Virus record (IMG/VR): IMGVR_UViG_3300021963_000132
Span: 1-62,418 of that record
Length of the DNA stretch: 62,418 nt
Strand: one strand, 5' to 3'
Source of the DNA: a virus
Lineage: Duplodnaviria > Caudoviricetes
The translations under genes and the position numbers were made by a program. How positions within the stretch are numbered: the stretch's first letter is position 1; every line of letters begins with the position of its first letter. Shown here piece after piece: positions 1-54,551 of the stretch. The notes under the pieces were generated by a model that worked only from the letters and a program-made list of their open reading frames with translations, ran no database searches and had not been told where the DNA came from.

Positions 1-3000
1 TGATTCACTGACCAGAATGAAGCGACCATTGAAGGGTTTCAGTATTTTTTGCGCTGGCTTAAGGTCAATACCTACCCATTGAGAATGCGACCAATCGTAT
101 TCCGACAGGTCAATATTTGTGTCAATCTGGGCACGACCAAGGTACGAGTGACGCATATTGCGCCCAGCGAGGTCCTTGGGGCGAATGAATTGTTTACGGA
201 ACGTTTCGGTTCGTGGTGGCGATTTTGCACTGCGCATTGAACGCATTGTTGATGGACCGTTGGGGTCGTCGTCGTCACGGGGAATAGCGCTCCAGTATCG
301 TTCTACGCGCCGTGCATTTTCTTTGCCAAGAAACGCCTCGAAGACCCGCTGGTTAAGAATTTGGTAACGCCCATCTCGCGTGCGTTGAACTGCCAGTGAA
401 GGATTCGCCCCATCAACACTGTTATCATAAAGATAAAACTCATCCATATCGCCACGAAGAATCGCATCAGTAGTAGTTCTACGCAGGTCGTCGGAGTATC
501 CCTGGGCTTTATATAGGGGAAGGTCCGGTCCACCGCCCTTTGCTCGAGCACGCATTCGTTTTTCAGCAACATCAACAGGCGTATAGACAAAATGACCAAT
601 TGTCGTATACCCTGCACGCTTTGCCTCGGACAATTGTTCTGTCCTTACTCCAGTTCCCGTAACAACATGGTCGCGTTGTTGCTCAATCGCCTGTCTGCGT
701 CCATACCTTGTCCACTGAGTGGACCAACGATGGATTTCCAAGGCGCCCTTGCCACCATCCCATCGTGGGTGACCCTTTTTAATTTCATCTGGGTCAATAT
801 CGGGAATTTCATCTGGTGTTGGGACACCAATGAATACACCAGACTGACGCATGCGAGACTTCCCTGAACCGGTTGTACCACCCAAGAACCAAAGAGTGGG
901 CCTATCTGGGTCCATGTTTTTGCGTTTTGCACGTCCGAAGACTGCATCAAGAATCTGTTGACCGAGGCGTGTATCGGGGTCGTTGCTAACACGTGCCCGT
1001 GCTGCACTATCCGAGGCAGAGCGCATTGATTGAATGGTTGCACCAAATGCTGCGTCAACTTTATCCGGGGACATGCGAACAAGCACTTCCAATGGAGCGT
1101 CTTCTAGATAATCGGGGTGCTCGTCGTACCAGTCAATGGCCTCTTTCATTCGTGCACTTCTCATGCCCAGCAATCGGTCACCGAGTGCCTCTAGCCGCTC
1201 TGCCGACAAACTGCTACGACCGCCGCGGCCACGGTCATTACCAAAACGGGTGACGAATTCATTGACGCTTATGCCGAAGACATCAGCCATATTTTGTATT
1301 GATACATTGTCAACGGTAGCGCGGACGGCATAATTGTCATCTGTATATGCAGCAAAAGACTCTGCAAACCATTCGACGCGAGCAGTTTCTGCATACTCAC
1401 TTATTTTGCGTGCCGATGCACGTTCTTGCTTGGTTCCCCAACCGATACGCCGGTATTCGGGCTCAAATGCTCCACCCTCGAAGTCGGTCACATTGCGCGT
1501 TCCACGCTTGAGGTTCTCATGCATTTCGGCGAGCGTTTCAACATAGTGCTCTAGTGAACGAGGATTTTGTTTTGCGGCCATCACCTCCCAGGCGTGAGCC
1601 AGTTCGTGTCGCAACATCTGGTCAACGTCGATATTGCGAAACTCAAAACCACGTGCTCGTGCTGCATCCCCAAAATTTCCTGGATTTGGTATGGCTTCTG
1701 TATTGAACGCAATAAAACCGCTCGACGCATAGCCACCCATAACAAAGTTCCATGCCTCTGGCCCACCGCCACTGATGCCTAGCAGACCCATTCCTTCAAT
1801 ATCTGGCTGAAAATCAGTGACCACAATTGGTGGCATACCGAATTGGCGAAGTGCTGCGGCTACTCCTGGAGTATTCCCAACCTCATCTTGGAGCATAGTT
1901 CGAAGAACTTGAGCAGCCTCAAAGTTCGGCTCAGCATCAGCGATTCGTTTGATTAGGCGGCGCGCATAGTTGCGAGTATATGGATTAGCGCGAAGTGTTT
2001 CTTCTAATTCCTCGAGAGAGGTTGGTACCATCTGAGCGACAAGTTCTTTAAGGTCGGAGTATCCATAGAACTCATACTCGTCAGTTACCTCATCAATATT
2101 ACGCAAAACACCTGATACTTCTTTCCTCGCTTTTTTGCGCGATGTTGATGAAATATCCTCGCCAGTTGCTGCTTCCGTCGGAAGACCTCCCGATTGTCCC
2201 TCTTCCATTTGCTCTTTGCGTTTTTGCGTAGTTGGTTTTGGTTTTCGCAGACCGCCAAAGATGCTTCGCATGCTCTGTAGGGTTTCATTATCCCGTTCAT
2301 TTGTATCGCGTTGTGGTGCAATTGACTCTGGAACAATTCCAGCAATACGAGAGAATGTCTCAGGGTCAATTTCTCCCACTCCAGCGGTGCCGTATCGTCT
2401 ACGGTTATCCTCATTGGCAAGAGCGGTTCCCTCGAAGAGTTTGCTAATGCGCCGACCCGCTCCTTCTGGAACTATGAATTTGGGGATTACAGGACGCTCT
2501 AGTGGCGTACCTTCAAACACAATGCCATCTTTATCCGCATCAATGGCCCCAGTAACATCGACAAATACGAAACCATTAGGGGCGGAACGTAAACCACGGC
2601 CGATACGTTGACCAACCTTTGGCCCGAGTCTCTTTACTTCAATGCCTTCAAATGCATTTGGTGTTGACGGTCCGTGTAGGTCCTCATAGATACTTTTGGC
2701 ACGTCGCCGCTCCGCCTTGGGTTTTGCCTTGCGTATCGCATCCATGATGAATCGCTCAGAACGCTTTTTCATGTTCCTGCGCCCAAGAGCAGTTCGTCCA
2801 GTGCGATTAGAAAGGTCCGACATATTCGTGCATGGCATCCAGATTGTCCGACCCGAACGTGATATGCGGCGACTAATTCCAATACATCCAAGTTGGCGAG
2901 ACCTATCGCGCGCGGCTTCAATATCCGTAAAAACGTCTGGGTCTTCATCCCGTGGCGCGGCTGGCTGGTACGACTTTCCAACGACACCAGATACCAAACC

Positions 3001-18100: not shown

Positions 18101-18332
18101 TTCTATCTTCATTTCGGGGTGGTGGGCTCCACAGAAATCGGTGAAACTTTGAAAATTTGAATTCTTTTATATCTGCAGTTGTGGTAATAAATTGCATAAA
18201 AGGCAGATACTCAATGGCGTCAGACCTAGAGACAAGGGCGCCATCTAATTTTTGTTCTCCATACGGTGTTAGTAAATAAAATAATTTTCTATCATTGTAG
18301 GAGCCAACCAATATTGCGCGAGTTTTCATCAC
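15159..18332 (-). CDS. Large protein (1057 aa) with DGDGDG leader variant and HExxH zincin-like motif
   Basis: KALGPSLSVNRSVDGDGDGFVNDGLPTMRP; QSMRSIR; GIHEMTHALH (16683-16697); distal LAEFAAE. Confidence 0.85.
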   Translation of the reverse strand: MMKTRAILVGSYNDRKLFYLLTPYGEQKLDGALVSRSDAIEYLPFMQFITTTADIKEFKFSKFHRFLWSPPPRNEDRNRWSRMFLSKTQPIDDELLVGAKVVTELVPGKKSKKSAEERAYAFRRKMINPSSPHLDGTQLRRSFIEPLRSATGAKALGPSLSVNRSVDGDGDGFVNDGLPTMRPFVPGFDFVLDESGKPQSMRSIRTARADTVKERSISGKTMLERVQDIKDHVAVRHNGGKSLKTKADAQRVLTKIIPGFGRTDRGRSYIDFLDEMRPDDELHPWQEAYISQFVFMLEDEPLRNTVRWKISRLDSSAADSGVNGQTSAPQRTAKWEPVDESLLLRGSGPRMRPRKMYEQPGIEIEYSHDDNFANRVGWGWILRQDKKNFNVLSAAISKQMQVDTVKLVNLRDVAEIAPLALGMRRETLDAISQLVASFSFFQDELVSVAVNANPQLLKVIERNLPFILETVDSINRVDANLLGISLEDVQQEMLGGTLNDMRYFLDNLSMATTMLTTQGRYKQTIDAVNGVVEKWSPINQTFTGIHEMTHALHFLRMQDKLRQRAAQLRSDYLSNLSKQFAQEGKTLPDKETLEKQLPVESFYLDVYKESLQSFAQNDPDGFRRRLLYWASSQNDVLHRTEYEPDGVTPRPGIDALLPFYLGQFAQTSNLISNYDSVGGAQLGRLLGLPFPISRQEASELDKDISRILNKAIYFGNQPVRMNASIARVLNEISQTTGNARLGVANKTGDVLTPYHLFSMLSPDLLQWEASSHRNDFRGVMLGTGSNFPSAFVLDTLGFPDIKISGSGEIAGLTAEEARPIADALLGVGPMMDRIHTSISSLAGGSVSNFDRIRAATENNNLIKPNEVLLPRAFRRFGINTFEDFESADMDTLIAATNAAIDEVGNNQIQRAKIPNAFGKLTDTTGLIFEMLPTSILELAPFSDAEKEQLREISGRVGLPAAPGAILRNDSPGYSSYQATLVSQQTLLSSDGFSLAEFAAETGLSEMLGIPLAQVAKGGGFTRPLTNEEMQLVYRYMLWIFGGSFPGDKLARFDEVPL

Positions 18333-28411: not shown

Positions 28412-28433
28412 TCCGGGCTCCAATCCCTAGTGC

Positions 28434-30197: not shown

Positions 30198-33100
30198 CTA
30201 TTCATACAGGGCAACTTCTACCTCATCGCCTTGTTCATTAATTTTCTTTATGGTACGTGAATTTATGGGCTGTACAGTCTTATCTACAAAAGTTGCCATT
30301 GCTGCCTTTGCCATCAGTTCTGCCATCTCTGCAAAAAGGGATACACGAACATCACCACCCCTTCCCAGTTGTCGGTCAAGTGCGACATATAGTGCTTCAA
30401 TTATTTCATCAAGTTCACGCTGTGTAAGGAAGAGTGCGCCAGCATTGGTTCTTTTGTCAGTAAGTAATCCAGATTTTTGCCGACGCATAATCTGCTTCAG
30501 CATTAACAGTGCTTGCTTTGTTCTGGCATCGTCGGCTTTCTGTGCCTCGACATCGAGGGAGTCCATTAATTCTTTAAAACGTGTTGCTTCTGCCCTAATC
30601 TCTGCGCGGCCATCTTTTTGACTCCTCATTGAGGCGGGCTTTTGCTGTTCGTTGCGTCGGGCAGCAAAGTATTTTTCGACATCTGGAATTCGATTAAAGG
30701 AGTTGCGCTTTGCCGATGAAGGCCTTTGCCTCTGTGGTTCAATTACTTGAGTCAACTTTGCGCCACGACCGGGGGTTCTGTCTATAAATGGGTCGTCGGC
30801 ATAGGACTCTCTTATTTTTTGCAAGCCATCCCTAATGCCTTCTGCGTTGGCAATATTTTTGAGTACTACTTGCTTTGAGCGAGCATTTGTTCGCGGCCCG
30901 AATCCGGAACCCCTGTTGGCCAAGGCATCCGCCACAACATCACTGACCAAATAATCATCAAGTAGCGATAGGGCATCGTCTAATTGACCAATTGATAAAT
31001 CACGACCCTCATCTGGGCTTGGTGATTCAAATAATTTATTGAGGTCGCGCCAAATCAGACTATGGCGCATGTCATCGTTGCGTGCTGCATACCCGGCGGC
31101 AATTGCGTCATCCATTTGTGCAATAAATTCGGATATTTTATTTGCTCGATTTTGTCTTTGCTGCTTGGCAGCCACTGGGTTATCTGGGGTTGATGATGTC
31201 CTTGCTTTACGTTTCTCGCTTTCGGTAATTCGTTTCGTAAGAGAAGAACGACTCAGCAGCGATGCCAACGAGTTATCTACCGATGATGGTCCATCACTAG
31301 CACGCTCGACGCCAACCGGAGCCTGCGGGTCCTCCTCTTCCAAAAGCATTCCTGAACGCAACTTGCGAGACACCGCTTCTAGTGTTTTTTGGCTAGCAGT
31401 TATTGCATCTTGCCACAAAGCGTTAATGTCAGCATCATTTATTTCTAGCGGGCCCGTCTTCTTCTTGTTTGCCTCTGGGCGCAATATCCGTATGACATCA
31501 ACGGCTTGAAGTGGATTCAGTTCCAAGAAGTCCAAATCGTAAACTTTTTGTGATTGGAAATTCAGAGCATCCTTCGAGGAACTTGATAGCGAATCCCAGG
31601 ACCTAGCGAAAGACGGTAGTGAGCCACGGGAGTCGGGTGCGTCATATGCGAGCGACTCAAATTTTTGTTTTTGTTCGGCGTTGCTGTCCGCCAAGGACAA
31701 CACGGAGAAAATATTATTTGCTTCATCAATTGCATCTTGCTTGCGAATCCCCTTCTTATTGTCTGGAGATGCGCTGTTTTGATTAATCCATGCCAATTTC
31801 TCCACTGGTGACATATTTTTGTATTCCGGTGGAATCATTTGCCTTAGCGGAGAGCCAGCACCATTATCAATTCTTGTAAAATTGCTGGTTCCTGAACTGC
31901 GCATTGATTGTGGGGACAGATTTCGGAGTGCTTGCAGGCCATTCCATTCATTGAGTGTTAGTCGTGAACTCAGGGATATCTCTTTTGCTATGCCGATGTT
32001 TGAAGATTGAGCCCAGGCGAGTAGTTTTTCTTGCTCCTCTTTCCCCATCGACATTGGTGCGCCATTGTTGAAAAGCGTTTCGCTTGAAATTCCGGAAATG
32101 CGACCCATATCGGTTGTGTCAAATTTATTCTTTGGACTAGCCGCCGCTTGCTCAAGTGGCGTGAAGCCTGACATTGCTGGTAAACCCGGTTGCTTATATG
32201 CAAATTCGTATGCTTGTAATATTTCGGCAAATTGTGCTGGACTAACAGAAAAGTTTGAACGAATTCCGCTACCTTGCGAACCTTCGATTAGTGCGTCATA
32301 TAATTTGAATCCAGCAGCAGCATTTGTATTCGCCTGAAACACTTGTTGCAGGCGCGCAAGTTCATCACGGATAATTCCCATTTCGTCACTGGAAAGGCTT
32401 ATGTCTATTGGGTTTTGTGGCAGGGACCCAAACCTACGAGAGAGTGGGGCAATCTGGTTTTTGAACATTGTTGAAACACCGACCGAGTCAACAGCATCAA
32501 GGATATTGGTCGCCATGGCTGGCTCACCATTGCTGAATAGACGGGAGACAAGGCTGTGAAGTTTTTCTGGTGTAACGGATTCAATAGCCTGGGCATTAGC
32601 ACCAGAAACAAGACCGTCAAGAATTGATTTAACGGTTTTTTGTTCGTTGTCTGATAATTGAACCCTCTTGATATCGCGCTCTAGTAGTGACTTGAGGTCG
32701 GGGACACGTCCACGCGCACGTCCTCCAGAATCAACGACATAGCGAGCGTTTGTAGCAATGTCATTAAGTGCTTGACGCGCAGAAGACCTACCGAATGCAA
32801 AATTTTCAATTTCCGTGTCGGTCAATCCGCCATATCGTATGACGTTTCCATTCTTTTTGCCGACAATGACTTCGCCCCTATTGCCATCTATGTTGATGAA
32901 TCGAACATCGGAGTCAGCAAACTTCTCACTTCTCCCGGGATAAAGGCGTTCCGTGTCCGGTAGACCCCTTCCGGTGGGGACGCTTGACCTGCCCATGGTT
33001 CGTCCCACGCGCTTTGCGCTTCGCGTTGTCGGAGCGATTGCGAGAACTTCGCTTTCCGTAATGTCGGCCGAAGTTGTATTGATGATTGCATTTTTTGCAC

Positions 33101-36100
33101 TTAGTAGTTGTTTGCCGCGCTGTATGGAAACATAAGCATGACGCAGCATGTGTGTTGCCGCTGAATTGATTGCTCTAATTTCATCTTCGTCATTAACATC
33201 ATCTAATGACAAAACTTCATCAATATCAAAATTATAAAATGGCGTAAAGTTATTTGAATCCTTTGCAAATTCTTTAATAATTTTATTCAAACTATCTGCA
33301 AGGTTATTAGCCGACATTGTGCTCGCCCTACCACCTGCCGGAAGGTCAAATAGTATTTCTCGTTCCCGTGGTGAGCCCTGTATAAGTGCCGATACTTGTT
33401 GCCATTCATCTTGAGAAAGACCGACTTTATCAATGTCCTTAGCCGTATATTTCTTGGCATCAGAAAGAGCAATTTCTCTAGTAATTTTGTCAATAGAATC
33501 CTGGCGTTGCTCGGCCAACAGATATTCAATAGTTGATTGAACCTCTTCAATCTCGTCACCTACGGCCAAAAGCATGTTGTCCAATACGCCAAAACGCAAG
33601 TCGTCTTCATCTGACAATTCGCCCTCTTCGTTTATCCGTGCTTCGATTTGGTCTCGCTGTGCTGAAATACTTGCGTTTTCTTCAAGTAGACGCTTTACAC
33701 GACTCTTTATTTTTTCATGATTTAGATTTCTGAAATCATCCAAAATGTCTGCCCGTACAGCAGGCAATAGGGAACGAGAACTTCGCATGGAGGCGGAGCG
33801 ACCGACATTCAATAATTGATGGTCATCCTGCACGTAGGCCGAAAGTGATGAGCCAGTTTTTAGGTCGCGCAGTAACACTTGTGATGAATTTTTCTTAGCC
33901 TTACTTATGCCCATCACAACGTAACGTTGTTCACCCTGGAGGTCCAAATTGGAAAGAAAGTTGTTGGGCAATATGTCGCCCAGTTTTATGTCGCCACCAA
34001 ATGAGAGATAGCCGTCTTGTCCATCTGGCGATGATGAACCAATGGGCCTTCCGGCTACCCCGTAGTTCAGTCCTACAGTATTCGCCGCAAGGTCCTGCAG
34101 GTAGCGCGCCCTCTCCCCAACCGCTCGCCCACTTTTCATGGAGCGATACTCACGCCATTCATTTTTGCTCGGGCCTTGGTCCTTCTTGCCGGGTATCTTT
34201 TTGGCGCGACGACGCTGCTCTTGCTCGAGGCGAACTTGCTCCGGGGTGAGTTTCTTCATGTTGCTGGTAACTTTTTTATCACCGGTAACATTCCATTTTT
34301 TGCGATTTTTGCCTCTGCGTGACCGCATTGAAAGTGGCTGACCCCCACTAAGGAACATTGCGTCAATTTTGTCAACACCAAGTGCAGTTAGTTGACCAAA
34401 ATCAAGTTCCGCCAAGTCCGACTTTTCTAGTTCGGTGCCATACATTTCGTTATAGTCCGCAATGAGCCCGCGCACCATGTTCATTTCTTCAGGTGACAAC
34501 TGTGGCTGCCGTTCGCCGTCAATATCGAAACCAAGCAAACGGCTCAACCCATCACGTACCCCATTGTCACGCTGCTGACGTAATTGCGCATAATTGGCCA
34601 ATGAATTGAATACGCTGTCGTCAATTACGCCATCATCAAACATGTCCTGAACAACAGGGTCAAATTTTCTCTGCGAACGGAAGTTGGGAACCGCCTGTGA
34701 ATAAAACACAATATCGAGTGGTTTCAACAATGGGTCGTTGTCAATATTGAGGCGCTCTCCGGCATCGATGAGGGCACGCATGCGCCTCTGGGCAACAACG
34801 TCTTGGTATGTGTTGCGTATTGCCGTATGGGCGCTGAGCCATGCATCGTGCTCTTCTACGCTCATTTCCCCGCTCGCCTTGCGGCGGCGCATCTCCACTG
34901 CGTCGGAGTCAAGTTTGTCTCCAAAATTATTAAATTCCCTATCATTCATAGATTGCAAATTGCTAATTAGTTTCCAGTCTTTAAATTCACGACCTTTTCG
35001 TGTCGTCAATTGCTGTCCTGTTCTAAGTGTTTCTGACTCTATAAACTCTGGCAATTTTGCTGACGAAAGTGGAATGCGTCTATCAATCTGTTCTGGTAGG
35101 GCCTGCGGGTTCGGTGCGGCAAAGAACATGGGGTCCGTAAAACGCGTGCTGCGTGCATCGCCCATCCGCAATCTGGTGACCATATAGCCACGTGTCTGCA
35201 GTTCAAGAATTATCTGGTCCGAACTAGGAAACCATGAAGGGATTGTGACGCCAGAATCATCTGGCGTTGCCGCTTTTTCTGGAATCCTTATGTTGTACAT
35301 CTCAAGTGCATCGATTAGTTCACCATCACTAAATGATGCAAGTGCGGGATTCGGCGTAGTTGTTGGTGCAACCTGCACCTGTTCGGTTAATACAGGACTT
35401 GTCTTCAAGTCGAATCGTGGTGGAGCAATCTTTGTATCGCTATTGCCAGTTCTTCTCGAACGAAGTGATGTTGGGGTTGGCGTCGGCGACATCAACAGAT
35501 TGATTTCATCTTCACTAAAGCCAAGGCCTCGCATCCAGGCAATTTGTTTTTGCCTTTGTTGCTCAAGAAACGCAGCCGAATCCCATGTTTGCTCCCCAGC
35601 GGATGGGGCAATTCCCTGTTGTGGTTGTTTTGGTTTTTCTTCAAGCGGTTCTTCTGGCCTGGCTTCAACGCGTCTGCGCCCGGTTATCTGCGCCCTTTCT
35701 TTACCAAGTTCCGCCGAGCGCCTGCGTAGCGGAATTTGTTCTTTGCGGTACTCATCCAGTGTTATCTCTTCAGCGTCGAGCCGCGCATCAAGGTTTGCCA
35801 TTGACTTGGATATTTGGCTAAGTTCATCATCAATGTCTTTGATATTTCGCGCAGAACGCACGCCTGTTGGCTCACCTGGAATTGTGTCATCAGAAACAAC
35901 GCTTCTAGATGACCGGGCAGAGGCAATACTCCTGTCGCCAGATTCGTTAATTATCCTCTGTGCACGCCGTGCGAATGAGGGCAATAACTCATCATTGTCA
36001 CGCATCTCCAAAATTTCTTCAGCCGTGAACCACTCAACATTTGTATTTTCTCCATCGCGAGGACGTAGTTTCCGCAATTCCCGCGGCCCAACCTCATAAA

Positions 36101-39100
36101 CATATGTATCGTAGGTCCAGTCTGGTGCCATGGGGTCAGAGAAGGAGTACACGGGCTCAATTGCCCTAATGTCTCCGCCGACCTCTTGCATGAATTCGTC
36201 AACGGCGGTAATCCCCGGAATCATCGCATCTATTTCATCACGATGTGCTCCACCAGGGAATGACCACTTACCGGCACCCACGCTCATATTCGGCGAACGG
36301 CGAGCCAACAGATATTCATAAGTTCCGTCTTTGCGTTTACGCCTTACAAGGGCACCAGATGCACCGTAGCGGCCATAGAAACGACGTCCAGTTACGGAGA
36401 AGTAATAGCCTTCGCCAGTACGCTGATTGTTGCCTCCACCAAGGGGGGCGAAAAACGGCAAAAACGGTGGTTTAATAAGTCCATTGCGTAGTGCCCGAAC
36501 ATGCTGGTAGGAGATGTCTCGCGCATAATGAATGCCATCATCTGTTCGGCGTATTTCGTAGGTGTCCCAGATTTTTTCGCTCAATGGCTCCTCTGGGTCT
36601 ATGTCTCGTTTTCTTGCAGTCTTCGGACGAACCCTGCGCGTGCTGCGCGTGCTGCGGCTAGTGGGCTCTGATGCTCGTGCTGTTGGTGCATGCCAGGGTG
36701 GCAGGTATTCATCCGTATCAGAAAAATCCTCAATTTCTAGGAGGCGCAGTATTTCTTCAAAAAGAGTGTCTTTTGTTATGTTTATTTCCCCAACGAATCG
36801 ACGACCAGCAAAAGACTCTATACCACGACTTCTTGCCAATTGCTCACGACTCACAAAAAGGTGATACGGATTCGATGTCTTGATTAATTTTTTAAGTGTA
36901 TTGAGTTGCTTATCCGTGATTGTGCTGGCATCTACGGTAAGTTCGCCTCCAAGTCCGGTCATGAGGCGAACCATCCCATCACCAAAGGCATCCTGATAAT
37001 CAAATTCCATCTCGTGTCGGTCAACGGGATAAAGAGTTCCGTCTGGATACATCCATGCACCCCAATAGAAACTTTTTGCGAATTCATCAACAGACATTTT
37101 CTGCATCGCCATTGGTCGTGGATTAGCGCCACGGCGCAGACGGGAACCGGCATCCAGACCCTTAATCACGTCCTTTAGGTCATTAATGATTGTGTCACGT
37201 GCTGGTGAGGGCGGCGCGTGCTCCATCAATAAGCGAAGTAAATCTGCCCTTCGTTGACTCCCCAAAACCACATAGGGATTGTTGTACATGGCTCCTTCAT
37301 CAATTAAACTTTGTAATATTCTGGATGTTTTGGCTATTTCTTGTTCATCATCATCGTCACTATCGCCAAGTCTGTCATCAATATCTTCCAGTATGGACAA
37401 AAGTTTGGCATTCTCCTCAAGACCGCGTTCTTTGCGTTGCTCTTTCCAATTTATGGCTTGCTGCTGCCGCTCTTTAATACGGCGTCGTTTCTCTTGGATT
37501 TGGGGGTCGTCGTCAATTGAAATACTGGAGCGCATTGAGCGTGTAGATGACGATGTGGCATCGGACTGCGTGGGGCGGGTGGTTATCCCCTCGCGTACCC
37601 CCACTTTCTCAATTTGTTCTGTTGTGATTTCCCAGGCGTCGTCGTCTTTTTCGATAAACACACTCGCGTGTGGGATGCGTGCTGCGAGGTCCGTGATTGC
37701 GTTAATTTGCTCATCAGTTGGAGGATTTGTGGTGTTGTAATCGATAACGATATTGCCAGGAATCGTCCGAATTTCGTAGTCTCGGCCTGGGAGCATCCAG
37801 TTGACGCGAGTCTTCTCGCGAGTTGCGACAAGCCTGATGAGCCCATCAGAAAATGCCTCTTCATAATCGTGCTCATCGCCATGGTAAAAACCAACTGGAT
37901 ATATCGAGCCATCCGGATATATCCAGCCCGCTCCCCAATCGGAATCAGCAAACTCTTCTGATGTTATTCGGTCAAAATGCAGACTTCGCTCATTACCGCC
38001 GCGTCGTCGCCGCAGGGGCTGTGTGGACTCTTCGCGTAATCGTTTTTTGATGTCGGCGCGCAGAGCAATGACAATTTGTTGTTCTTCTGGTGTCAGCGGT
38101 TCAACCTTCTCGCCATATTCCGTGATTATGGCGTCAATGGTAAGCAACCCATCTATGGATGAAGCCCCAGCATCGGTTGCAAGGGGATTATCCAATGCGG
38201 CAGAATCAGAAATAACTCCGCGTAGCAGGTCATCTCTCTTTTCTAGAGCAGTTCTCGCATACCAATTATCACCATCATCACTTCTTGGTCGCGGCTCGTC
38301 ATCACCGGTCAAGTTTGCTACTACGTCTGAATTCAAAATACGTGTTAGAAGGTCAACGAGTGTGCGATTTCGCTCAGTTCTTTTGTATCTAGTCCGTACC
38401 TCTCGGGAAAGTGCTTCGCGTTGTTCTTGTTTGGCCTTGGCGGCTAATTTTCGTCCTTCTGGCGACTCCCGAGTGACCAAACGTCTGGAGCGCTGCGTTC
38501 TGCTGCTTCGTCCATCGAGTAGCCCACGGGTGGTTGGCAACGAACGTGCTGGGCTACCCCCAGATAGGCGCTCCTCTCTAACCGATATTCCCTCAACCGA
38601 ATCAAGGGCAACTTTGCCAAGGTCTTCATCGGAGGCATCGGCAAGACGGATTGACCGAGTTGACCTCATTGAAACTTGTTGGTCAGGCGGGTCTAGGCGG
38701 TCAATGACTTCGTCAATCGGCCCGTCATAGTTCAGGAAACCAACCTCGATTTGTTCTCGTGTAAATTGGCTGGGTAGGTCTATGTTGCTTATTTGAGTTG
38801 GTGGCCTTACTATTCTGGTTATCCAGTTAGAAGCAACTTCAGCAAGTGTTGCCCGTAAATATATTTCTCTGTCTTCTTCTGTCAAATCCTCTAAACCCGG
38901 TATTTGGCGGAGGCTATTCCAGAAGTCCTTATCCCTCGCAAATGAAAGAGACGCAAGTATATTTCCCCACTCTGAATGTCGGTCAAAGGTGTTTCCTAAC
39001 GTATAGTGACCCAAAATGTCATGAAAGACAGTAAGGGGACTTAACACAAAACCACGTTTTTCTAGTTCGTCATGAATGCTCTGCCATGCATGGGGGTCTG

Positions 39101-40331
39101 TCAGTAGGTGTAGGTAGCCGTGAATAAACTCGTTTTCGTTTTTATTTGCTCCGCCAATTCTGGCATCTTCATTACGTGCTATTTTTTCTAATTCCGGAAT
39201 TATGTAATATTTGAGAAGTTTTGCAGAAATTTCATTAGCACGCAACATAATTGCATTTTGTGAATTGGCGCTGTAATCAGTCTTTAGTTGCTCCACATAT
39301 TTGTCCATAAACAAATCGTGGAAGGGGAATCGTTCGCCGTTTCCTGGCCACTTGGCAAGATTCGCATTACGTCTATTGCCGCCCTGGAACGTTGAATTGA
39401 CGAGGTCCTCCCACTTGGCCGCATCGCGGTTATTTGAAAGGTCGTCCACAATCTCCTGCAGAACCCCTGCATTGGGAATTTCGGTATTGTGGTAATCCCT
39501 GTCCCCTGGCAACAAGGAGCGGAGAATCCCATTCGGCGGAAGTCTGAGCGAAATTGTGCCATCGTCGTGAATCCGCAACTCAGAATTATTTACGATGTCC
39601 TCAATGGTAAGGTCAATATCTGGATGTGATTCAAATCCATCAATGATGGTTTTTCTTCTGAGAAGACCAGTACGCTCACGACGACCCATTAATTCCCATA
39701 CGTCACGCATCTGCCTAAGGTTGTTGACCAGTAGATACGTTTGTCGCTCAATGCGGTTTTTCTGAATAGGCGTCCAGTCCCCCATAGACAGAATTTTTTG
39801 TTCAAGTTTTTCGCGTATGCCGAGCCAGAAGTAACCTCTGCCCAAGTTATCTAATTCCTCGTAGTCCGAGTCATCTTTGTCCGTGCCCTCTACAACAACA
39901 TCACTTAGCGGAATTCTTTCACGGATGCTTCGCATGGATACTCGACCACGAGCAGTCCGGGCATCTCTCAGTTGTTCTGGCTTGCCGTCAATTCCACTGA
40001 GCAATGACCGCAATTTGTTCTCATCAAACTCAATGTTGACATTTCCGGCACGGCGCTGGTTTTCAATCTCAACAGCGTCACCTTCGGTCAACTTCGCAAG
40101 CCGTCGAGCAAGATTCTTGGGAACAATAAAACGAGGAATTATTGGACGCTCAAGTGGTTTGCCTTCAAAGACGATGCCATCTGCGTCAGCGTCAACAACG
40201 CCAGTAATGTCAACAAATGCCATGCCTGGTCCAGCGGAGCGCAACCCACCACCTAGGCGCTGGCCAACCCTGGGGCCGAGTTGTTTCAGTTCGGCATTGA
40301 GCCCTGACTCAGGAAAGTCGGGCGTCAGTAT
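30198..40331 (-). CDS. Giant multidomain protein (3377 codons), predicted to be expressed as a -1 frameshift extension of the prohead protease; DxDxDG leader, HDxxGH motif, Nudix, KTSC-like
   Basis: The frame is open upstream of the track's TTG (40244) as far as the A7 run at 40331-40337, and the conserved leader (KQLGPRVGQRLGGGLRS) begins before that TTG. Nudix: YGASGALV...YLLARRS...WSFPGGAHRDE...AVDEFMQEVG. HDILGH at 39006-39023. Confidence 0.88.
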   Translation of the reverse strand: MLTPDFPESGLNAELKQLGPRVGQRLGGGLRSAGPGMAFVDITGVVDADADGIVFEGKPLERPIIPRFIVPKNLARRLAKLTEGDAVEIENQRRAGNVNIEFDENKLRSLLSGIDGKPEQLRDARTARGRVSMRSIRERIPLSDVVVEGTDKDDSDYEELDNLGRGYFWLGIREKLEQKILSMGDWTPIQKNRIERQTYLLVNNLRQMRDVWELMGRRERTGLLRRKTIIDGFESHPDIDLTIEDIVNNSELRIHDDGTISLRLPPNGILRSLLPGDRDYHNTEIPNAGVLQEIVDDLSNNRDAAKWEDLVNSTFQGGNRRNANLAKWPGNGERFPFHDLFMDKYVEQLKTDYSANSQNAIMLRANEISAKLLKYYIIPELEKIARNEDARIGGANKNENEFIHGYLHLLTDPHAWQSIHDELEKRGFVLSPLTVFHDILGHYTLGNTFDRHSEWGNILASLSFARDKDFWNSLRQIPGLEDLTEEDREIYLRATLAEVASNWITRIVRPPTQISNIDLPSQFTREQIEVGFLNYDGPIDEVIDRLDPPDQQVSMRSTRSIRLADASDEDLGKVALDSVEGISVREERLSGGSPARSLPTTRGLLDGRSSRTQRSRRLVTRESPEGRKLAAKAKQEQREALSREVRTRYKRTERNRTLVDLLTRILNSDVVANLTGDDEPRPRSDDGDNWYARTALEKRDDLLRGVISDSAALDNPLATDAGASSIDGLLTIDAIITEYGEKVEPLTPEEQQIVIALRADIKKRLREESTQPLRRRRGGNERSLHFDRITSEEFADSDWGAGWIYPDGSIYPVGFYHGDEHDYEEAFSDGLIRLVATREKTRVNWMLPGRDYEIRTIPGNIVIDYNTTNPPTDEQINAITDLAARIPHASVFIEKDDDAWEITTEQIEKVGVREGITTRPTQSDATSSSTRSMRSSISIDDDPQIQEKRRRIKERQQQAINWKEQRKERGLEENAKLLSILEDIDDRLGDSDDDDEQEIAKTSRILQSLIDEGAMYNNPYVVLGSQRRADLLRLLMEHAPPSPARDTIINDLKDVIKGLDAGSRLRRGANPRPMAMQKMSVDEFAKSFYWGAWMYPDGTLYPVDRHEMEFDYQDAFGDGMVRLMTGLGGELTVDASTITDKQLNTLKKLIKTSNPYHLFVSREQLARSRGIESFAGRRFVGEINITKDTLFEEILRLLEIEDFSDTDEYLPPWHAPTARASEPTSRSTRSTRRVRPKTARKRDIDPEEPLSEKIWDTYEIRRTDDGIHYARDISYQHVRALRNGLIKPPFLPFFAPLGGGNNQRTGEGYYFSVTGRRFYGRYGASGALVRRKRKDGTYEYLLARRSPNMSVGAGKWSFPGGAHRDEIDAMIPGITAVDEFMQEVGGDIRAIEPVYSFSDPMAPDWTYDTYVYEVGPRELRKLRPRDGENTNVEWFTAEEILEMRDNDELLPSFARRAQRIINESGDRSIASARSSRSVVSDDTIPGEPTGVRSARNIKDIDDELSQISKSMANLDARLDAEEITLDEYRKEQIPLRRRSAELGKERAQITGRRRVEARPEEPLEEKPKQPQQGIAPSAGEQTWDSAAFLEQQRQKQIAWMRGLGFSEDEINLLMSPTPTPTSLRSRRTGNSDTKIAPPRFDLKTSPVLTEQVQVAPTTTPNPALASFSDGELIDALEMYNIRIPEKAATPDDSGVTIPSWFPSSDQIILELQTRGYMVTRLRMGDARSTRFTDPMFFAAPNPQALPEQIDRRIPLSSAKLPEFIESETLRTGQQLTTRKGREFKDWKLISNLQSMNDREFNNFGDKLDSDAVEMRRRKASGEMSVEEHDAWLSAHTAIRNTYQDVVAQRRMRALIDAGERLNIDNDPLLKPLDIVFYSQAVPNFRSQRKFDPVVQDMFDDGVIDDSVFNSLANYAQLRQQRDNGVRDGLSRLLGFDIDGERQPQLSPEEMNMVRGLIADYNEMYGTELEKSDLAELDFGQLTALGVDKIDAMFLSGGQPLSMRSRRGKNRKKWNVTGDKKVTSNMKKLTPEQVRLEQEQRRRAKKIPGKKDQGPSKNEWREYRSMKSGRAVGERARYLQDLAANTVGLNYGVAGRPIGSSSPDGQDGYLSFGGDIKLGDILPNNFLSNLDLQGEQRYVVMGISKAKKNSSQVLLRDLKTGSSLSAYVQDDHQLLNVGRSASMRSSRSLLPAVRADILDDFRNLNHEKIKSRVKRLLEENASISAQRDQIEARINEEGELSDEDDLRFGVLDNMLLAVGDEIEEVQSTIEYLLAEQRQDSIDKITREIALSDAKKYTAKDIDKVGLSQDEWQQVSALIQGSPREREILFDLPAGGRASTMSANNLADSLNKIIKEFAKDSNNFTPFYNFDIDEVLSLDDVNDEDEIRAINSAATHMLRHAYVSIQRGKQLLSAKNAIINTTSADITESEVLAIAPTTRSAKRVGRTMGRSSVPTGRGLPDTERLYPGRSEKFADSDVRFINIDGNRGEVIVGKKNGNVIRYGGLTDTEIENFAFGRSSARQALNDIATNARYVVDSGGRARGRVPDLKSLLERDIKRVQLSDNEQKTVKSILDGLVSGANAQAIESVTPEKLHSLVSRLFSNGEPAMATNILDAVDSVGVSTMFKNQIAPLSRRFGSLPQNPIDISLSSDEMGIIRDELARLQQVFQANTNAAAGFKLYDALIEGSQGSGIRSNFSVSPAQFAEILQAYEFAYKQPGLPAMSGFTPLEQAAASPKNKFDTTDMGRISGISSETLFNNGAPMSMGKEEQEKLLAWAQSSNIGIAKEISLSSRLTLNEWNGLQALRNLSPQSMRSSGTSNFTRIDNGAGSPLRQMIPPEYKNMSPVEKLAWINQNSASPDNKKGIRKQDAIDEANNIFSVLSLADSNAEQKQKFESLAYDAPDSRGSLPSFARSWDSLSSSSKDALNFQSQKVYDLDFLELNPLQAVDVIRILRPEANKKKTGPLEINDADINALWQDAITASQKTLEAVSRKLRSGMLLEEEDPQAPVGVERASDGPSSVDNSLASLLSRSSLTKRITESEKRKARTSSTPDNPVAAKQQRQNRANKISEFIAQMDDAIAAGYAARNDDMRHSLIWRDLNKLFESPSPDEGRDLSIGQLDDALSLLDDYLVSDVVADALANRGSGFGPRTNARSKQVVLKNIANAEGIRDGLQKIRESYADDPFIDRTPGRGAKLTQVIEPQRQRPSSAKRNSFNRIPDVEKYFAARRNEQQKPASMRSQKDGRAEIRAEATRFKELMDSLDVEAQKADDARTKQALLMLKQIMRRQKSGLLTDKRTNAGALFLTQRELDEIIEALYVALDRQLGRGGDVRVSLFAEMAELMAKAAMATFVDKTVQPINSRTIKKINEQGDEVEVALYE

Positions 40332-40337
40332 TTTTTT
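40301..40337 (-). other. Predicted programmed -1 ribosomal frameshift signal
   Basis: mRNA reads UCA AAA AAA UAC UGA: heptamer A_AAA_AAA (40337-40331), 7-nt spacer, then hairpin GCCC-GACU-UUCCUG-AGUC-A-GGGC (40323-40301). Confidence 0.8.
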
Positions 40338-41749
40338 GAACCACCGGCCTTGCCGTAAAGAACCTCATCAATAGTTCCGGCAACATGCTCAAGGGCCATA
40401 ATCGCGTCCGCAGTGAGGCCGTTACTTATGTGGATTCCCTCGTCGTCAACCTCAGCATCTAGTCGGTGGTAGTCAATGACTGGGTCCAATAGGCTTTTTA
40501 CCTGATACGCCTCATTGGGGGTGCAGAGCACCGTGAAAACTTCTTGCTCTTCGGACTTGGACGCAGTGGGCTTAAGCGATTCCAGGAGTTCAATGGCTCG
40601 CGTAAGTTTTTCGGCAGGAACAATGCCCGAGCCGAGTGTTGCGTCAAGAATGACATCGGCGGCTTCATCCATCTGCTCATCCAATGACTTGCCACCACTG
40701 GTCATGAACACCATTCCAGTTGGCATGCCCATTCCAGGCTTCACGCTCATTGGCATTGAGGGCATCTGCGATGGGACGACCGTGGGTGACGGCATCCGAC
40801 TTTCTTCATTGCGCATGCCAATTTTTTCCGGCTTACCAAACATGTACTCGCCAGAATCGTAATCGTGGTGGTAGCCGAGACGGTAGGTGACCATGTTGCC
40901 GTTGCCTGCATCACGGTTGAAAACGACAGAATTCTCCGTTGCGTACAGGACATCCAGTCGTGAGCGCGAACGGCTCATCAACTCCATAGATAGTGCCGCA
41001 AGCGCCTCATCGGGTAGTTGGCGAGCCTCGCCTTCTGCAAAAATATCCTCACGCTGACGGGGGTATTCGCGATTGCGCTCCTCGTGATGGCGAACGGGCA
41101 GTTGGGGCAGAATTGGACGACCCACGACGGCGGGTCCTCGTGGTGTCATTAGGGCGGTTGGCCCCATTCCTGGCATTCCGCACTTTTCGGCGTCATCACT
41201 CTTTACCGAGATAGTCCCAGTCAGTTGATTCGCGCCGTGAAGAACAGGGCTGACTTCATACAACTCAACCTCATGCAGGACATTTGCTTGCGCATGGGGG
41301 TCAAATGTGGCGTTGAGGGTTTTATAGCCAATGCTCCACTCCTGCTCATGTCCAAAGAATGCAACACTCGCAAATGCCTCACGGCCCTTTTCGGTTGCAA
41401 GGTTGAATTGAACCTTGGCAAACAGTCCACCGACATTGGCCATCTTCATTTTTGCTGGAAGGCGGGGGTCGGAGGCGGGAACTTCGTAGATTTCAAGAAC
41501 CTTGCCGATGGGGTCATTCCAACTATGCCCCCATACAACGCGAGGCTTACGGCGCTTCAGACTTTCAGTAAACGCGCCAGTTGCAACAACGTCACCGACA
41601 CTGTCTTTGTTGCCAATTGCCGCCACAAAACATTCAACAATTCCCTGTGCCTCGTCAATGTTGACCTGGCCATTTAGCGCCTTAAAGTTGATTTGGTCCT
41701 GCGTAGAGTTGCTCATATTGCTCCAATCGTCTTCTTCAATAATAGTCAA
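40325..41749 (-). CDS. HK97-family prohead (capsid maturation) protease with C-terminal extension
   Basis: GNKDSVGDVVATGAF...VVWGHSWNDPIGK (His)...EWSIGY (Ser)...LHEVELYEVSPV..GAN; lies directly downstream of the portal. The true start may be MSNSTQ. Confidence 0.92.
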   Translation of the reverse strand: MTIIEEDDWSNMSNSTQDQINFKALNGQVNIDEAQGIVECFVAAIGNKDSVGDVVATGAFTESLKRRKPRVVWGHSWNDPIGKVLEIYEVPASDPRLPAKMKMANVGGLFAKVQFNLATEKGREAFASVAFFGHEQEWSIGYKTLNATFDPHAQANVLHEVELYEVSPVLHGANQLTGTISVKSDDAEKCGMPGMGPTALMTPRGPAVVGRPILPQLPVRHHEERNREYPRQREDIFAEGEARQLPDEALAALSMELMSRSRSRLDVLYATENSVVFNRDAGNGNMVTYRLGYHHDYDSGEYMFGKPEKIGMRNEESRMPSPTVVPSQMPSMPMSVKPGMGMPTGMVFMTSGGKSLDEQMDEAADVILDATLGSGIVPAEKLTRAIELLESLKPTASKSEEQEVFTVLCTPNEAYQVKSLLDPVIDYHRLDAEVDDEGIHISNGLTADAIMALEHVAGTIDEVLYGKAGGSKKY

Positions 41750-41819: not shown

Positions 41820-43868
41820 CTATGGGCGGCTGAATTCCCACGCCCTACGAGCCTCCATGTCAGCAAGGTTTGGTCGTGCGTTGGCGATTGCATCAGCGAA
41901 AATCATGTTCACTGATGTGCGCAACGCTGAATACCTATCATCTTCGCTCGGAATCCCATATGAATTGAATATGGAAGACGAAATATCTGTTGATATTTTT
42001 TCAACAATAGATTTGATGCGGCTCATCTGAGATTCCGAGTGGACAGCAGTTTCGTTTTTGCTCGGAGCCACATACTTGGCTGATTTTTCATTATAAATAT
42101 TTTGCGAATCACGAATAATGGTGGCTAAAACCGGCTTTACGTCCTCATCCAATTGTTTAAACCAAGTTTCCTTGCTTAGGATTGACTCAATATCAAGAGA
42201 GCCGGAGGCAAGTGCTTTTCGTGATTTTTGACCGCTCATCTTCTCGAGGACAACTCTCTGCATTCGCTCAAGAACGCGCTCAATGCTTCTGTCAAGAATC
42301 TCCGTCCAACGGGATACAGACAACTCACTTTGTTCATCTTTGGTAAAGAGTTCTGGCCCGATTGCGTCTGCCATCATCATCCCTGGTGGTGCACCGGCCC
42401 CTGGGGCGCCCATTGCCTCAATGGCCATTGCTCCAGCCATTGTTGTTGGGTCTGGAGAACCGCCAGCACCCATATCTGGTGGGACCGCTGCCGCGTCCCC
42501 GCCCGGGGGCATTCCTGGCATTCCTGGCATTCCTGGGATGGCCGCACCACCTGCATCGGGGGGCATTCCTGGCATCCCCGGAATAGCCCCACCACCCGGA
42601 AGTTCCATTCCTGGCTGCTGTGTTGGCATCGGCTTTTTGGTATTGGCAATTGGCGTTAGGTTGGGGTTCATGAGTAGGCTGTCCGCCAAGTCAGCCTCTA
42701 CGTCCTTACGTCCAGTGCCAGTTCGGTATTCGTTGACACTAATAAGACCCGCCTGCAATTCTTGCATCAGATATCTTTCGGATTCTTGTTTGGCAAGAAT
42801 CAAGACAGGCACATCCGATGTGTCGAAATCAATGTAATGGTCTTCATCCAGTTCATCAAGGGCGCGAGCCAAAACCTCCAAGTGTGGAGCCATTGTCTCG
42901 TTCCAGAAAACACGAATTTCTTCACCGGCATTACTAAACGTCCTGCCTGCTGCATTTCCAATTACCGACTCTGGCACACCAAAAGAAGCAAGAATCTCCT
43001 CCTTGGTGATTTGGCGCATCTGAATGTATGCAGCGTCACGCGGGTTTGATGAGGTATCTACGAAGTCAACTCCATCGTCAGCGGAAATCACCGTGGTTTG
43101 CCCCACTTTGCCCAGATTTCCCCTGAATCTATTGCGTAATTCATCCTTATCATCATCGTCGATTTCGCCACGGAGAACAAGGAGACCACCCGGCCGACCA
43201 TCATTGAGAAGGTAGTTGCGGTTGTACAACTTGGCCAAATTTTCAATTTCTACGGCTATGCCAGCAGACTCCAGTGGCGTTAGGGAGAGATATGGGTCGA
43301 GGGGGTGTGGTCGGCGAATCCATACAACATCTTTTGGATTCATCATTATCTTGTCGCCATTCGGCATCAAAACCTCATAGCCAGAAACAAAAGTTTTTGA
43401 ATCTGGAATCGGTGCCGTTGACTGTGGGGGCAGGAGGTTTAGTCCGATAATTCCACCATCTCGGCCACGAACCTTTTCAATAAAAACTCCTCGCGTACCT
43501 AGGAGCAACTGTGATGACATTCTATATCTAAATATAAATGAATTTTCACCAATGTTGCTTTTGGTGTTTAAGAGGTCCAGGATGCCCTTCTGCTTACCGG
43601 GTTTGTTTTTTACAACCGTCCCCTCAGGGGAATTGTCGCGCCTGAGGATAATGGGCAGCCGTGCCTGGTTGCCAGCAATTGCATCAATGCAGCGAGATAC
43701 CCAAGTAACTTTCTGCATTCCCTCGCGATAGGCGCGCTCAATATCCCAGGGGTCGCGATATGCCTTGCCAGCATACGAAGCGTTCTGGGCTACAATGCCA
43801 CCGGGTCCGATGGCTGATTTCTGTGCCTCATTGGCCAGAGATTTTGTGTCAATTTTGTTCCAGGCCAT
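41820..43868 (-). CDS. Portal protein, HK97-like family, with Pro/Gly/Met-rich linker and C-terminal extension
   Basis: WVSRCIDAIAGNQARLP...QLLLG...WIRRPHPLDPYLSLTPLE...NDGRPGGLL...RQITKEEILASFGVP...ISVNEYR. Confidence 0.92.
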   Translation of the reverse strand: MAWNKIDTKSLANEAQKSAIGPGGIVAQNASYAGKAYRDPWDIERAYREGMQKVTWVSRCIDAIAGNQARLPIILRRDNSPEGTVVKNKPGKQKGILDLLNTKSNIGENSFIFRYRMSSQLLLGTRGVFIEKVRGRDGGIIGLNLLPPQSTAPIPDSKTFVSGYEVLMPNGDKIMMNPKDVVWIRRPHPLDPYLSLTPLESAGIAVEIENLAKLYNRNYLLNDGRPGGLLVLRGEIDDDDKDELRNRFRGNLGKVGQTTVISADDGVDFVDTSSNPRDAAYIQMRQITKEEILASFGVPESVIGNAAGRTFSNAGEEIRVFWNETMAPHLEVLARALDELDEDHYIDFDTSDVPVLILAKQESERYLMQELQAGLISVNEYRTGTGRKDVEADLADSLLMNPNLTPIANTKKPMPTQQPGMELPGGGAIPGMPGMPPDAGGAAIPGMPGMPGMPPGGDAAAVPPDMGAGGSPDPTTMAGAMAIEAMGAPGAGAPPGMMMADAIGPELFTKDEQSELSVSRWTEILDRSIERVLERMQRVVLEKMSGQKSRKALASGSLDIESILSKETWFKQLDEDVKPVLATIIRDSQNIYNEKSAKYVAPSKNETAVHSESQMSRIKSIVEKISTDISSSIFNSYGIPSEDDRYSALRTSVNMIFADAIANARPNLADMEARRAWEFSRP

Positions 43869-54475: not shown

Positions 54476-54551
54476 GAGCCAGTAACTCAGTGGTAAGAGT
54501 GGCATTCTTATAAAATGCAGGTCGCGGGTTCAATTCCCGCCTGGCTCACCA
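54476..54551 (+). tRNA. tRNA-Ile, anticodon UAU
   Basis: Acceptor GAGCCAG/CTGGCTC plus ACCA; D arm ACTC..GAGT; anticodon arm GCATT-CT TAT AA-AATGC; T arm GCGGG-TTCAATT-CCCGC; 76 nt. Confidence 0.93.

Follow-up and report, generated by a model that had tools for sequence, protein, structure and literature searches.

A conserved candidate -1 frameshift site between the prohead protease gene and a 3,377-codon reading frame in a tailed-phage contig

Background

We analyze the junction between two genes on the minus strand of IMG/VR record IMGVR_UViG_3300021963_000132 (Duplodnaviria; Caudoviricetes), a single viral contig of 62,418 bp that we call the window and whose completeness CheckV puts at ~42%. 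The upstream gene encodes a prohead protease (41749..40325, minus strand; Pfam Peptidase_S78), and the downstream one is a giant open reading frame (ORF) in the -1 frame relative to the protease. A first-pass annotation of the window had proposed that a programmed -1 frameshift at the end of the protease gene fuses the two; on re-reading the sequence we find its coordinates correct, and likewise its heptamer, spacer and hairpin, its junction peptide and its ORF length. Here we describe the junction, follow it through related loci in IMG/VR and in metagenomes, and weigh programmed recoding against the other explanations of the same arrangement.

Results

Anatomy of the junction

On the minus strand the protease gene ends GGT GGT TCA AAA AAA TAC TGA. 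Read in the protease frame as TC[A AAA AAA], the sequence contains the slippery heptamer A_AAA_AAA at 40337..40331, with one Lys codon in the P site and the next in the A site. The heptamer is followed by a 7-nt spacer, UACUGAC (40330..40324), which contains UAC, the final sense codon of the protease, followed by UGA, its zero-frame stop (TGA at 40327..40325), and then by a hairpin, GCCCGACUU-uccu-GAGUC(A)GGGC (40323..40301), with a 9-bp stem, one bulged A and a 4-nt loop. The energy of the hairpin is -15.2 kcal/mol (z-score, z, of -4.60), and 0 of 200 dinucleotide shuffles are as stable. An extra UGAG/CUCA pairing suggested in the first pass stands in part, as UGA/UCA pairing, and is predicted for the window sequence alone. 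Rfam covariance models run over 40150-40500 return no frameshift family at E<=10.

The -1 frame is open from stop to stop over 3,388 codons (40364..30198, minus strand). Counted from the slip codon ATA, the giant ORF (40331..30198, minus strand) encodes 3,377 amino acids (aa) followed by a stop, and begins ILTPDFPESG. A shift at the heptamer would thus produce the junction ..GGSKK-ILTPDF.. (the stretch across it is AGGSKKILTPDF) and a fusion of 3,850 aa if the protease starts at TTG 41749, or of 3,839 aa if it starts at ATG 41716, close to the 3850 aa or so first predicted. A tryptic peptide of the -1 product, ILTPDFPESGLNAELK, is encoded upstream of TTG 40244, the annotated start of the giant gene.

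This combination is unique among the slippery heptamers compared. Across nine large genes of the minus strand, 21 X_XXY_YYZ heptamers (YYY = A or T) are in frame; of these, none but the heptamer at the protease end has a strong hairpin downstream (next best z -1.96), and none but it has a -1 frame that stays open for >54 codons. Runs of A7 are not enriched in the window (12 found, 24.9 expected). Lys codons in the protease gene are 15 AAG versus 8 AAA, and both slip-site Lys codons are AAA. An A8 run in place of A7 would make the pair a plain in-frame fusion, a possibility that the first-pass annotation had raised. Contigs of three DNA runs, from three studies, cross the site with no inserted or missing letter; although contigs cannot show rare variants, three independent assemblies without an indel leave an assembly error hiding A8 unsupported.

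Two other readings of the site were considered and set aside. Nothing on the coding strand at the junction resembles a promoter or a terminator, and no T-run follows the hairpin, so the hairpin does not read as a terminator. Reassignment of the stop codon was rejected because the zero-frame stop differs among relatives (TAA, TGA or TAG) and because read-through would leave the frame unchanged.

The window also carries a tRNA-Ile gene with anticodon UAU (54476-54551, plus strand), which reads AUA, the first codon after a -1 slip. AUA accounts for 30% and 25% of the Ile codons in two giant ORFs of ~3,370 aa, versus 0-10% in the RNR, TerL, portal and protease genes, and the tRNA may chiefly serve the giant genes.

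Relatives that require the shift

Scanning IMG/VR with the protease as query gave 60 loci, and scanning metagenomes with the leader of the giant ORF (described below) as query gave 32; L063 and L066 duplicate the contigs of L001 and L013. A -1 shift is needed, at GGTGGTTCAAAAAAA, in 15 IMG/VR loci (L001-L010, L013-L017), and 7 of the 32 metagenome loci are of the same frameshift type. These 22 loci, two of which duplicate other contigs, without exception keep the A-run (A7, or A8 in L002, which reads GGC CAA AAA AAA), have a zero-frame stop (TAA, TGA or TAG) 0, 1 or 4 codons past the heptamer, and have a -1 frame that stays open to the end of the locus, for 439-1,334 codons. Over their last 120 residues, the proteases of these loci are 44-81% identical to that of the window, and the heptamer is invariant in 9/9 aligned relatives. 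Of the stand-alone proteases, the 28 closest clusters were tabulated (P0122-P0149, 60-93% identity); 23 of them end in GG[SQ]KK plus 0-4 residues and the remaining five in LKK, SKK or PKK. Each of the residues S, Q, L and P can be encoded by an NNA codon, as A7 requires, and these ends are compatible with A7 at the protein level.

In the 13 distinct frameshift-type sequences, the predicted stem starts 6-7 nt past the run (z -1.5 to -3.8), in four different sequence contexts, and at least three different stem sequences occupy this kept position (GCCCGACUU, UGCCCAA and GCCCUUAG..CUAAGGGC). Run and stem are both retained in homologous protease genes, one of the checks that the first-pass annotation had proposed. 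When nine of the hairpins are aligned, 98.8% of cells pair, with G-C, G-U and A-U alternating at one pair. Nucleotide diversity, as a pairwise mean, is 0 within the heptamer and 0.41 across the spacer; the two stem arms have values of 0.10 and 0.08, the loop of 0.36 and the following 15 nt of 0.215, so that the stems are about four times less variable than the spacer and loop; six of the seven spacer columns vary. This pattern of substitutions favors an RNA constraint on the hairpin. The linker peptide encoded along this stretch, by contrast, is nearly unconstrained, its ratio of nonsynonymous to synonymous polymorphism (pN/pS) being 0.80.

Apart from the in-frame fusions described below, the other IMG/VR loci comprise six distant outgroups that have no giant -1 ORF (L054-L059; an ordinary protease of 504-514 aa where the end of the ORF is included), four loci that end before the junction (L011, L019, L039, L040), and one, L021, with a separate giant gene that has its own ATG and no slip site. 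We also built a protease tree of 33 rows, leaving out rows with stops in the high-scoring segment pair, duplicates and truncated loci. Frameshift-type rows group together in this tree (2 changes needed, 1 compatible), with an in-frame clade as sister, and L012 and L021 are unplaced near the frameshift clade.

Searches of phage and bacterial records gave little to compare with. The junction region has no blastn match among 50,697 phage records, and tblastn against phage records finds the protease domain only, at <=41% identity, so that cultured phages offer no direct comparison. A scan of genome contigs gave six matches on metagenome-assembled genomes (MAGs), labelled Phycisphaerae, Gammaproteobacteria, Bacteroidia, Nitriliruptoraceae and Acidimicrobiia; with six matches under five different bacterial labels, no host can be inferred.

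The leader module and the start of the giant gene

The -1 product opens with a module of ~100 aa, the leader, which extends from K16 to about residue 110 (40286..40002, minus strand). Alignments of 25 sequences show 23 invariant columns and the pattern K.LG..G.R.G.GLR.A..G..FVD.TG..DAD.DGIVFEG.P.ERPIIPRF.VP. The module is rare: a profile search of 1.84 billion representatives returns 41 clusters at E<=1e-10. An AlphaFold2 model built from the 25 sequences (mean predicted local distance difference test score 60, predicted template-modeling score 0.48) was too poor for a fold search.

The position of the leader bears on where translation of the giant frame could start. Between the upstream stop of the -1 frame (40367-40365) and TTG 40244 the window contains no ATG or GTG, as had been claimed, and no TTG either. 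The first such codons in this frame are TTG 40244 (40244..40242, minus strand), the annotated start, and then ATG 40223 (40223..40221, minus strand), an alternative gene-caller start that would give 3,341 aa. Both lie inside the leader, where the TTG encodes the invariant Leu (L30) of GGGLR and the ATG the Met of GPGMAFVD. The module begins 14 codons upstream of the annotated TTG, in agreement with the first-pass annotation, and the nearly invariant K16 and G19 and the invariant G29 all lie upstream of that codon. In the seven distinct L003-group sequences tabulated (L003, L006-L009, L064, L065) the TTG codon reads CTT, and the TTG is thus not conserved as a start; the Met of ATG 40223 is Leu in L002. 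Seven of the 13 frameshift-type sequences (the window, L001, L065 and four of L013 type) have no ATG, GTG or TTG upstream of the module.

Five database gene calls start at the module Met and lose ~27 module positions; one of them, the 3,341-aa P0272, equals the ORF of the window as read from ATG 40223. Overall, public calls of the giant ORF start at the module Met or at a GTG or TTG past the stop (P0271, P0272, P0273, P0278, P0280; P0243, P0249). Among the 53 profile matches listed, the module lies at residues 451-470 in five in-frame protease fusions, at ~196-223 in roughly twenty paralogs and at 9-25 in eight gene calls.

Two further copies of the leader lie in the window. The second (11537..11238, minus strand) is at ~aa 207-307 of a 2,840-aa ORF (tblastn 54% identity, E 5e-31) and is preceded by a 'type A' head of ~205 aa beginning VKQYVILTD..., and the third (2670..2377, minus strand) is at ~aa 222-320 of an ORF of at least 1,111 aa (tblastn 57% identity, E 1.5e-32), preceded by a 'type B' head with a DUF3721 match in Pfam. 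The two head types are unrelated to each other. We also considered these ~200-aa heads as copies of the protease extension and rejected the idea, the BLAST comparison not being significant (best E 0.032). Paralogous giants in which the leader follows an N-terminal head of ~200-250 aa account for 19 of the 32 metagenome loci, and some related contigs hold two or three leader-bearing giants.

Natural in-frame fusions

Elsewhere in the family the protease and a long downstream sequence already share one frame. Among the IMG/VR loci, such fusions have a junction of A7 in two (L012, L060), G_GGA_AAA in two (L018, L020), U_UUU_UUA in four (L022, L023, L035, L053) and A10-A11, encoding 'LKKK[IL]', in 26 (L024-L034, L036-L038, L041-L052). 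The metagenome set contains three in-frame A7 fusions (L070, L071, L073), and two in-frame fusions lie on MAG contigs, one with G_GGA_AAA at the junction (L099) and one without a slip site (L102). The GGSKK junction of the window recurs in L012, L060, L070, L071 and L073, and the same leader as in the window giant is carried by L012, L070 and L073. A window-type protease forms the N-terminal part of at least 350 database proteins (831-2,370 aa), with >90% of the protease covered in most, and the tails of these proteins include ArdC-N, MPTase-PolyVal, UvrD-type helicase, sigma-70 region 4, HTH, pentapeptide and KTSC domains. Databases name these in-frame fusions merely 'HK97 family phage prohead protease'.

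A slip-prone site stands at the junction in 38 of the 39 in-frame loci in which the junction is covered, against a background of 14 strong heptamers per 10,737 codons. At these junctions the -1 frame ends within 1-13 codons in every case checked, so that the predicted -1 products end KKR (L012, L070, L073; stop TAG or TGA), KKSA (L060) or KKKNNF (L024). Strong hairpins accompany the in-frame A7 sites and L020 (z -3.2 to -4.4), and no downstream structure accompanies the A10-11 and U_UUU_UUA sites (z >= -0.3).

In L012 (4596-4646), L070 (2264-2318) and L073 a GGGGCG/CGCCCC hairpin lies 6 nt downstream (z -3.4 to -4.4), an arrangement that resembles dnaX and in which a slip would truncate the fusion. 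The A10-A11 junctions (26 loci, L024-L052) are seen in many independent assemblies, and a shift there into either the -1 or the +1 frame would meet a stop a few codons on. At such junctions transcriptional slippage is a candidate route to free protease.

The protease and the gene order of the window

The protease matches PF04586, the HK97-type S78 family of Pfam, with 50 bits against a cut-off of 21, and the PHROG head maturation protease family phrog_80 with E 5e-28; its match to the NCBIfam equivalog TIGR01543, 55 bits, lies under the cut-off of 59. By these profile scores we treat it as an S78 family member and not as a certified equivalog. The S78 domain covers ~aa 32-184 and is followed by a C-terminal extension of ~285 aa, for which the label 'scaffold' would be an analogy only. 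H64 and S128 are invariant in a 27-sequence protease alignment and are candidates for the catalytic His and Ser. Homologues are 456-486 aa long and start at the MS.. position, and the true start is likely ATG 41716, which would make the product 463 aa.

On the minus strand, a portal gene (43868..41820; Pfam Phage_portal) precedes the protease gene, and very large ORFs follow it. The large ORFs after the protease have 3,348, 559, 3,364, 1,057, 677, 2,840 and at least 1,111 aa; a pair of small ORFs, of 112 and 208 aa, is interspersed. The large terminase gene is on the plus strand, divergent from portal and protease (44154-46487, 777 aa). A LAGLIDADG_3 domain at aa 350-406 of the terminase lies between its N-terminal part and its RNaseH-like nuclease domain and may be an intein or a homing-endonuclease insertion.

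In four longer relatives (G001-G004, behind L006, L015, L021 and L018), an HK97-type major capsid gene is found ~25-50 kb from the protease. In most HK97-like phages the capsid gene is adjacent to the protease; at this distance, the giant ORFs sit between protease and capsid, within the head module.

Content of the giant protein

Scanned whole, the giant protein has no Pfam or PHROG match. When it is scanned in 500-aa pieces, Pfam PF00293 (NUDIX) scores 26 bits against a cut-off of 21.1, and a NUDIX hydrolase-like domain is found at ~aa 1305-1459 (36419..35955, minus strand; RenU, PDB 6uuf, E 1.3e-7), with a partly divergent Nudix box. Profile and structure-database scans recognize no other domain in the 3,377 aa.

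Other large ORFs of the window have recognizable parts of their own. The 2,840-aa ORF (3636-12158, minus strand) contains long pentapeptide-repeat arrays and a KTSC domain, and the 3,364-aa ORF (18329-28423, minus strand), which has no leader module, shows weak ParB-like and methyltransferase-like PHROG matches. The ORF cut off by the left end of the window (1-2658, minus strand), which bears a leader, encodes a Zeta_toxin-type P-loop kinase (Pfam, 37 bits versus a cut-off of 22.3) and has a weak zincin-like match.

Discussion

The signal at the end of the protease gene, the conservation of that signal, the open -1 frame and the natural in-frame fusions are all observed directly. In our judgment they are best explained if the prohead protease gene ends in a conserved site of programmed -1 recoding, a reading argued from comparative sequence evidence to which we assign a probability of roughly 75%.

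Several observations weigh against this reading. L021-type relatives have no slip site and a separate ATG preceded by AAGGG, which resembles a Shine-Dalgarno (SD) sequence, and three metagenome loci (L075, L076, L078) hold leader-first ORFs with their own ATG; an unfused giant or leader protein appears, from these sequences, to be viable in this family. In 6 of the 13 distinct frameshift-type sequences a GTG or TTG lies two codons past the slip codon, and gene callers use these post-slip codons (P0243, 'MPDFTELG'). The hairpin alignment contains no double-sided covariation (0/9 pairs, relative to the commonest pair), and shuffled alignments reach the observed score in 205 of 500 cases, so that covariation does not prove the hairpin. 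As the hairpin overlaps coding sequence, its conservation could stem partly from coding constraint in the -1 frame. In the 15-codon linker, pN/pS is 0.80 in the -1 frame versus 0.88 and 0.83 in the other frames; the linker shows no frame-specific purifying selection, and pN/pS therefore gives no evidence that it is translated. In E. coli, A_AAA_AAG shifts better than A_AAA_AAA, and in dnaX an SD sequence 10-14 nt upstream helps the -1 shift, whereas at this site an SD-like GGUGGU lies only 3 nt upstream of the heptamer. The lone RNA contig found, from a metatranscriptome (X17), covers 40386-40663 and ends short of the slip site.

The same protein could be made without a ribosomal shift if RNA polymerase added an A within the A7 run, so that an A8 mRNA would be read straight through and the hairpin would be incidental. 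The product would be identical, and the 26 in-frame relatives with A10-A11 and no structure (z >= -0.3) at the junction look as slippage-prone runs do. However, efficient slippage by bacterial RNA polymerase typically needs a homopolymer of 9 or more A/T, while the run in the window is only A7, short of that length; moreover, a stable hairpin at 6-7-nt spacing goes with the A7 sites and not with those of A10-11, as fits a ribosomal stimulator. We consider transcriptional slippage unlikely as the main route, and the recoding is, on this comparison of junctions, probably ribosomal rather than transcriptional. Slightly less likely still is that nothing is recoded, with the giant gene initiating alone at CTG 40328 (which overlaps the stop as cTGA), TTG 40244 or ATG 40223 and the A-run left as a relic of an in-frame fusion. 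The separate ATG of L021-type relatives, the leader-first ORFs of L075, L076 and L078, the GTG or TTG at +2 in 6/13 frameshift-type sequences, an AGGTGG 4 nt before TTG 40244 and the linker pN/pS of ~0.8 are all in its favor. Yet the other 7/13 sequences offer no ATG, GTG or TTG upstream of the module, seven distinct relatives have CTT in place of the TTG, starts at the TTG or the ATG would delete invariant module positions, and the SD-like motif merely consists of Gly-Gly-Gly codons. Moreover, the leader copies in the paralogs of the window are internal, ~205-220 aa from the start, and in lineages that share 44-81% identity over the last 120 residues, a relic would have kept neither AAA AAA against an AAG-rich Lys usage nor the hairpin and the nearby stop (0-4 codons on).

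A further explanation is an artifact or a dead gene: either an assembly error in the homopolymer hides an in-frame fusion, or a frameshift mutation has inactivated the gene. Homopolymers are classic error sites, and in-frame fusions do exist in relatives. Nevertheless, three independent assemblies from three studies have no indel at the run, the arrangement is common to 22/22 loci with three different zero-frame stop contexts, and in the window the -1 frame runs for 3,377 codons without a stop, as it does in every relative up to where the locus ends, whereas an untranslated frame would not stay open. We regard this explanation as very improbable.

Under programmed recoding, most ribosomes would read ..GGS KK Y and stop at UGA, giving free protease of 463-474 aa. 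In a fraction, the hairpin, 7 nt downstream of A_AAA_AAA, would lie at the mRNA entry and cause a pause while two Lys-tRNAs occupy the heptamer; both Lys-tRNAs would slip back in tandem by one nucleotide, AUA (Ile) would be read next, and 3,377 further codons would be translated into a fusion of protease, extension and giant protein of ~3,840-3,850 aa. Transcriptional slippage from A7 to A8 would give the same protein and may contribute. We infer the slip, its efficiency and a minority fusion product; a low ratio of fusion to protease, as the first-pass annotation had it, is suggested by analogy, and relatives of the opposite polarity indicate that the ratio need not be low everywhere. Through its protease or assembly part, the fusion would bring the effector-like giant protein into proheads during assembly, at a set proportion, and the protein, by analogy with known systems, is probably carried within the capsid. 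Cleavage by the protease would free it later, and the released giant would be delivered together with the phage DNA.

The in-frame relatives invite a broader reading. In its simplest form, the comparison of junctions suggests that selection in this family favors having a short protease and a long fusion side by side, whichever the polarity. More tentatively, and with somewhat less than even odds in our view, the junction may be a recoding switch whose polarity has flipped: a slip would extend the protease in the clade of the window, the same site would truncate the fusions of the in-frame sister clade, and effectors of ~400 kDa would be loaded in a Gag-Pol-like manner through the protease tether. 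What is selected would then be the production of the two forms at a set ratio. The truncating site would either have a hairpin or be lengthened to A10-11 for polymerase slippage, and the paralogous giants with a head plus leader would be loaded by other anchors.

If the recoding site is real, it would add a new gene pair, a head protease and a giant protein, to the few conserved frameshifts of phages. It would also offer a testable answer to the question of how phages load very large effector-type proteins in controlled numbers, namely by a tether to the maturation protease, which would then remove itself by cleavage. The family would then constitute a natural experiment in which extension by shift, truncation by shift and long-homopolymer variants of one junction show how recoding efficiency is tuned. 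Metagenomic annotation misses this architecture, as the giant is called from inside the module or from a post-stop GTG or TTG and the fusions are labelled 'prohead protease'.

Comparison with known systems

The position of the giant ORFs in the head module fits the idea of 'polyvalent proteins', which Iyer et al. 2017 (PMC5512222) describe as giant, multi-domain and head-module-encoded proteins that are predicted to be packaged and injected as effectors. The head and packaging context expected of such proteins is found in the window, where portal, protease and giant ORFs follow in order. PMC5512222 reports polyvalent fusions to virion-assembly domains (MuF, portal and an assemblin-like peptidase), places assemblin-like peptidases only at the C-termini of polyvalent proteins and uses the word frameshift 0 times. 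Unlike the proteins described there, the fusion predicted here has its protease at the N-terminus, and the window giant has one recognized domain, NUDIX. The opposite fusion order is seen in Gordonia phage DalanDe gp27 (L061), a 1,633-aa 'capsid maturation protease' with S78 in its C-terminal third. A search of full-text literature, with subscription papers and supplements outside its reach, found no frameshift at a prohead protease gene and no frameshift-linked polyvalent proteins.

Other phages bring proteins into the prohead by related means. With the nested genes C and Nu3 of lambda, gpO of P2 and the capsid-targeting sequences of T4, proteases or internal proteins likewise enter the prohead through a shared assembly segment and are then released by proteolysis. 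Unlike the arrangement in the window, these systems use nested in-frame starts or short N-terminal tags, carry small cargo and involve no recoding. Frameshifts of -1 that set a ratio of short to extended product in morphogenesis genes are likewise known from the G/GT tail assembly chaperones of lambda, 10A/10B of T7 and the capsid of Lactobacillus phage A2. The pair in the window differs from them in consisting of a head protease and a giant protein, and in an extension of 10 kb versus tens to a few hundred codons. To our knowledge, the predicted frameshifted extension of ~10 kb would be among the longest for a phage.

The closest mechanistic analogue is dnaX of E. coli, in which a -1 frameshift at A_AAA_AAG with a 3' hairpin yields tau and gamma. 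The two share an A-rich Lys-Lys heptamer, a stable hairpin 6-7 nt downstream and, as predicted here, two products with a common N-terminal part in a set ratio. In-frame L012, L070 and L073 copy the dnaX logic exactly, in that a -1 slip leads to a stop after one codon (KKR, then stop). The shift in the window would, unlike that in dnaX, extend the protein by 3,377 aa, and its heptamer ends in A rather than G, with no SD at the dnaX spacing.

In function, the closest analogue is the Gag-Pol (Gag-Pro-Pol) of retroviruses and totiviruses, where an assembly protein is extended at low frequency into an enzyme-bearing polypeptide. The enzymes of Gag-Pol are co-assembled into the capsid and released by the protease of the same polyprotein. 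The system described here, in which packaging and cleavage would parallel those of Gag-Pol, differs in that the upstream part is a maturation protease with its extension, not a shell protein, and in that it belongs to a tailed double-stranded DNA phage.

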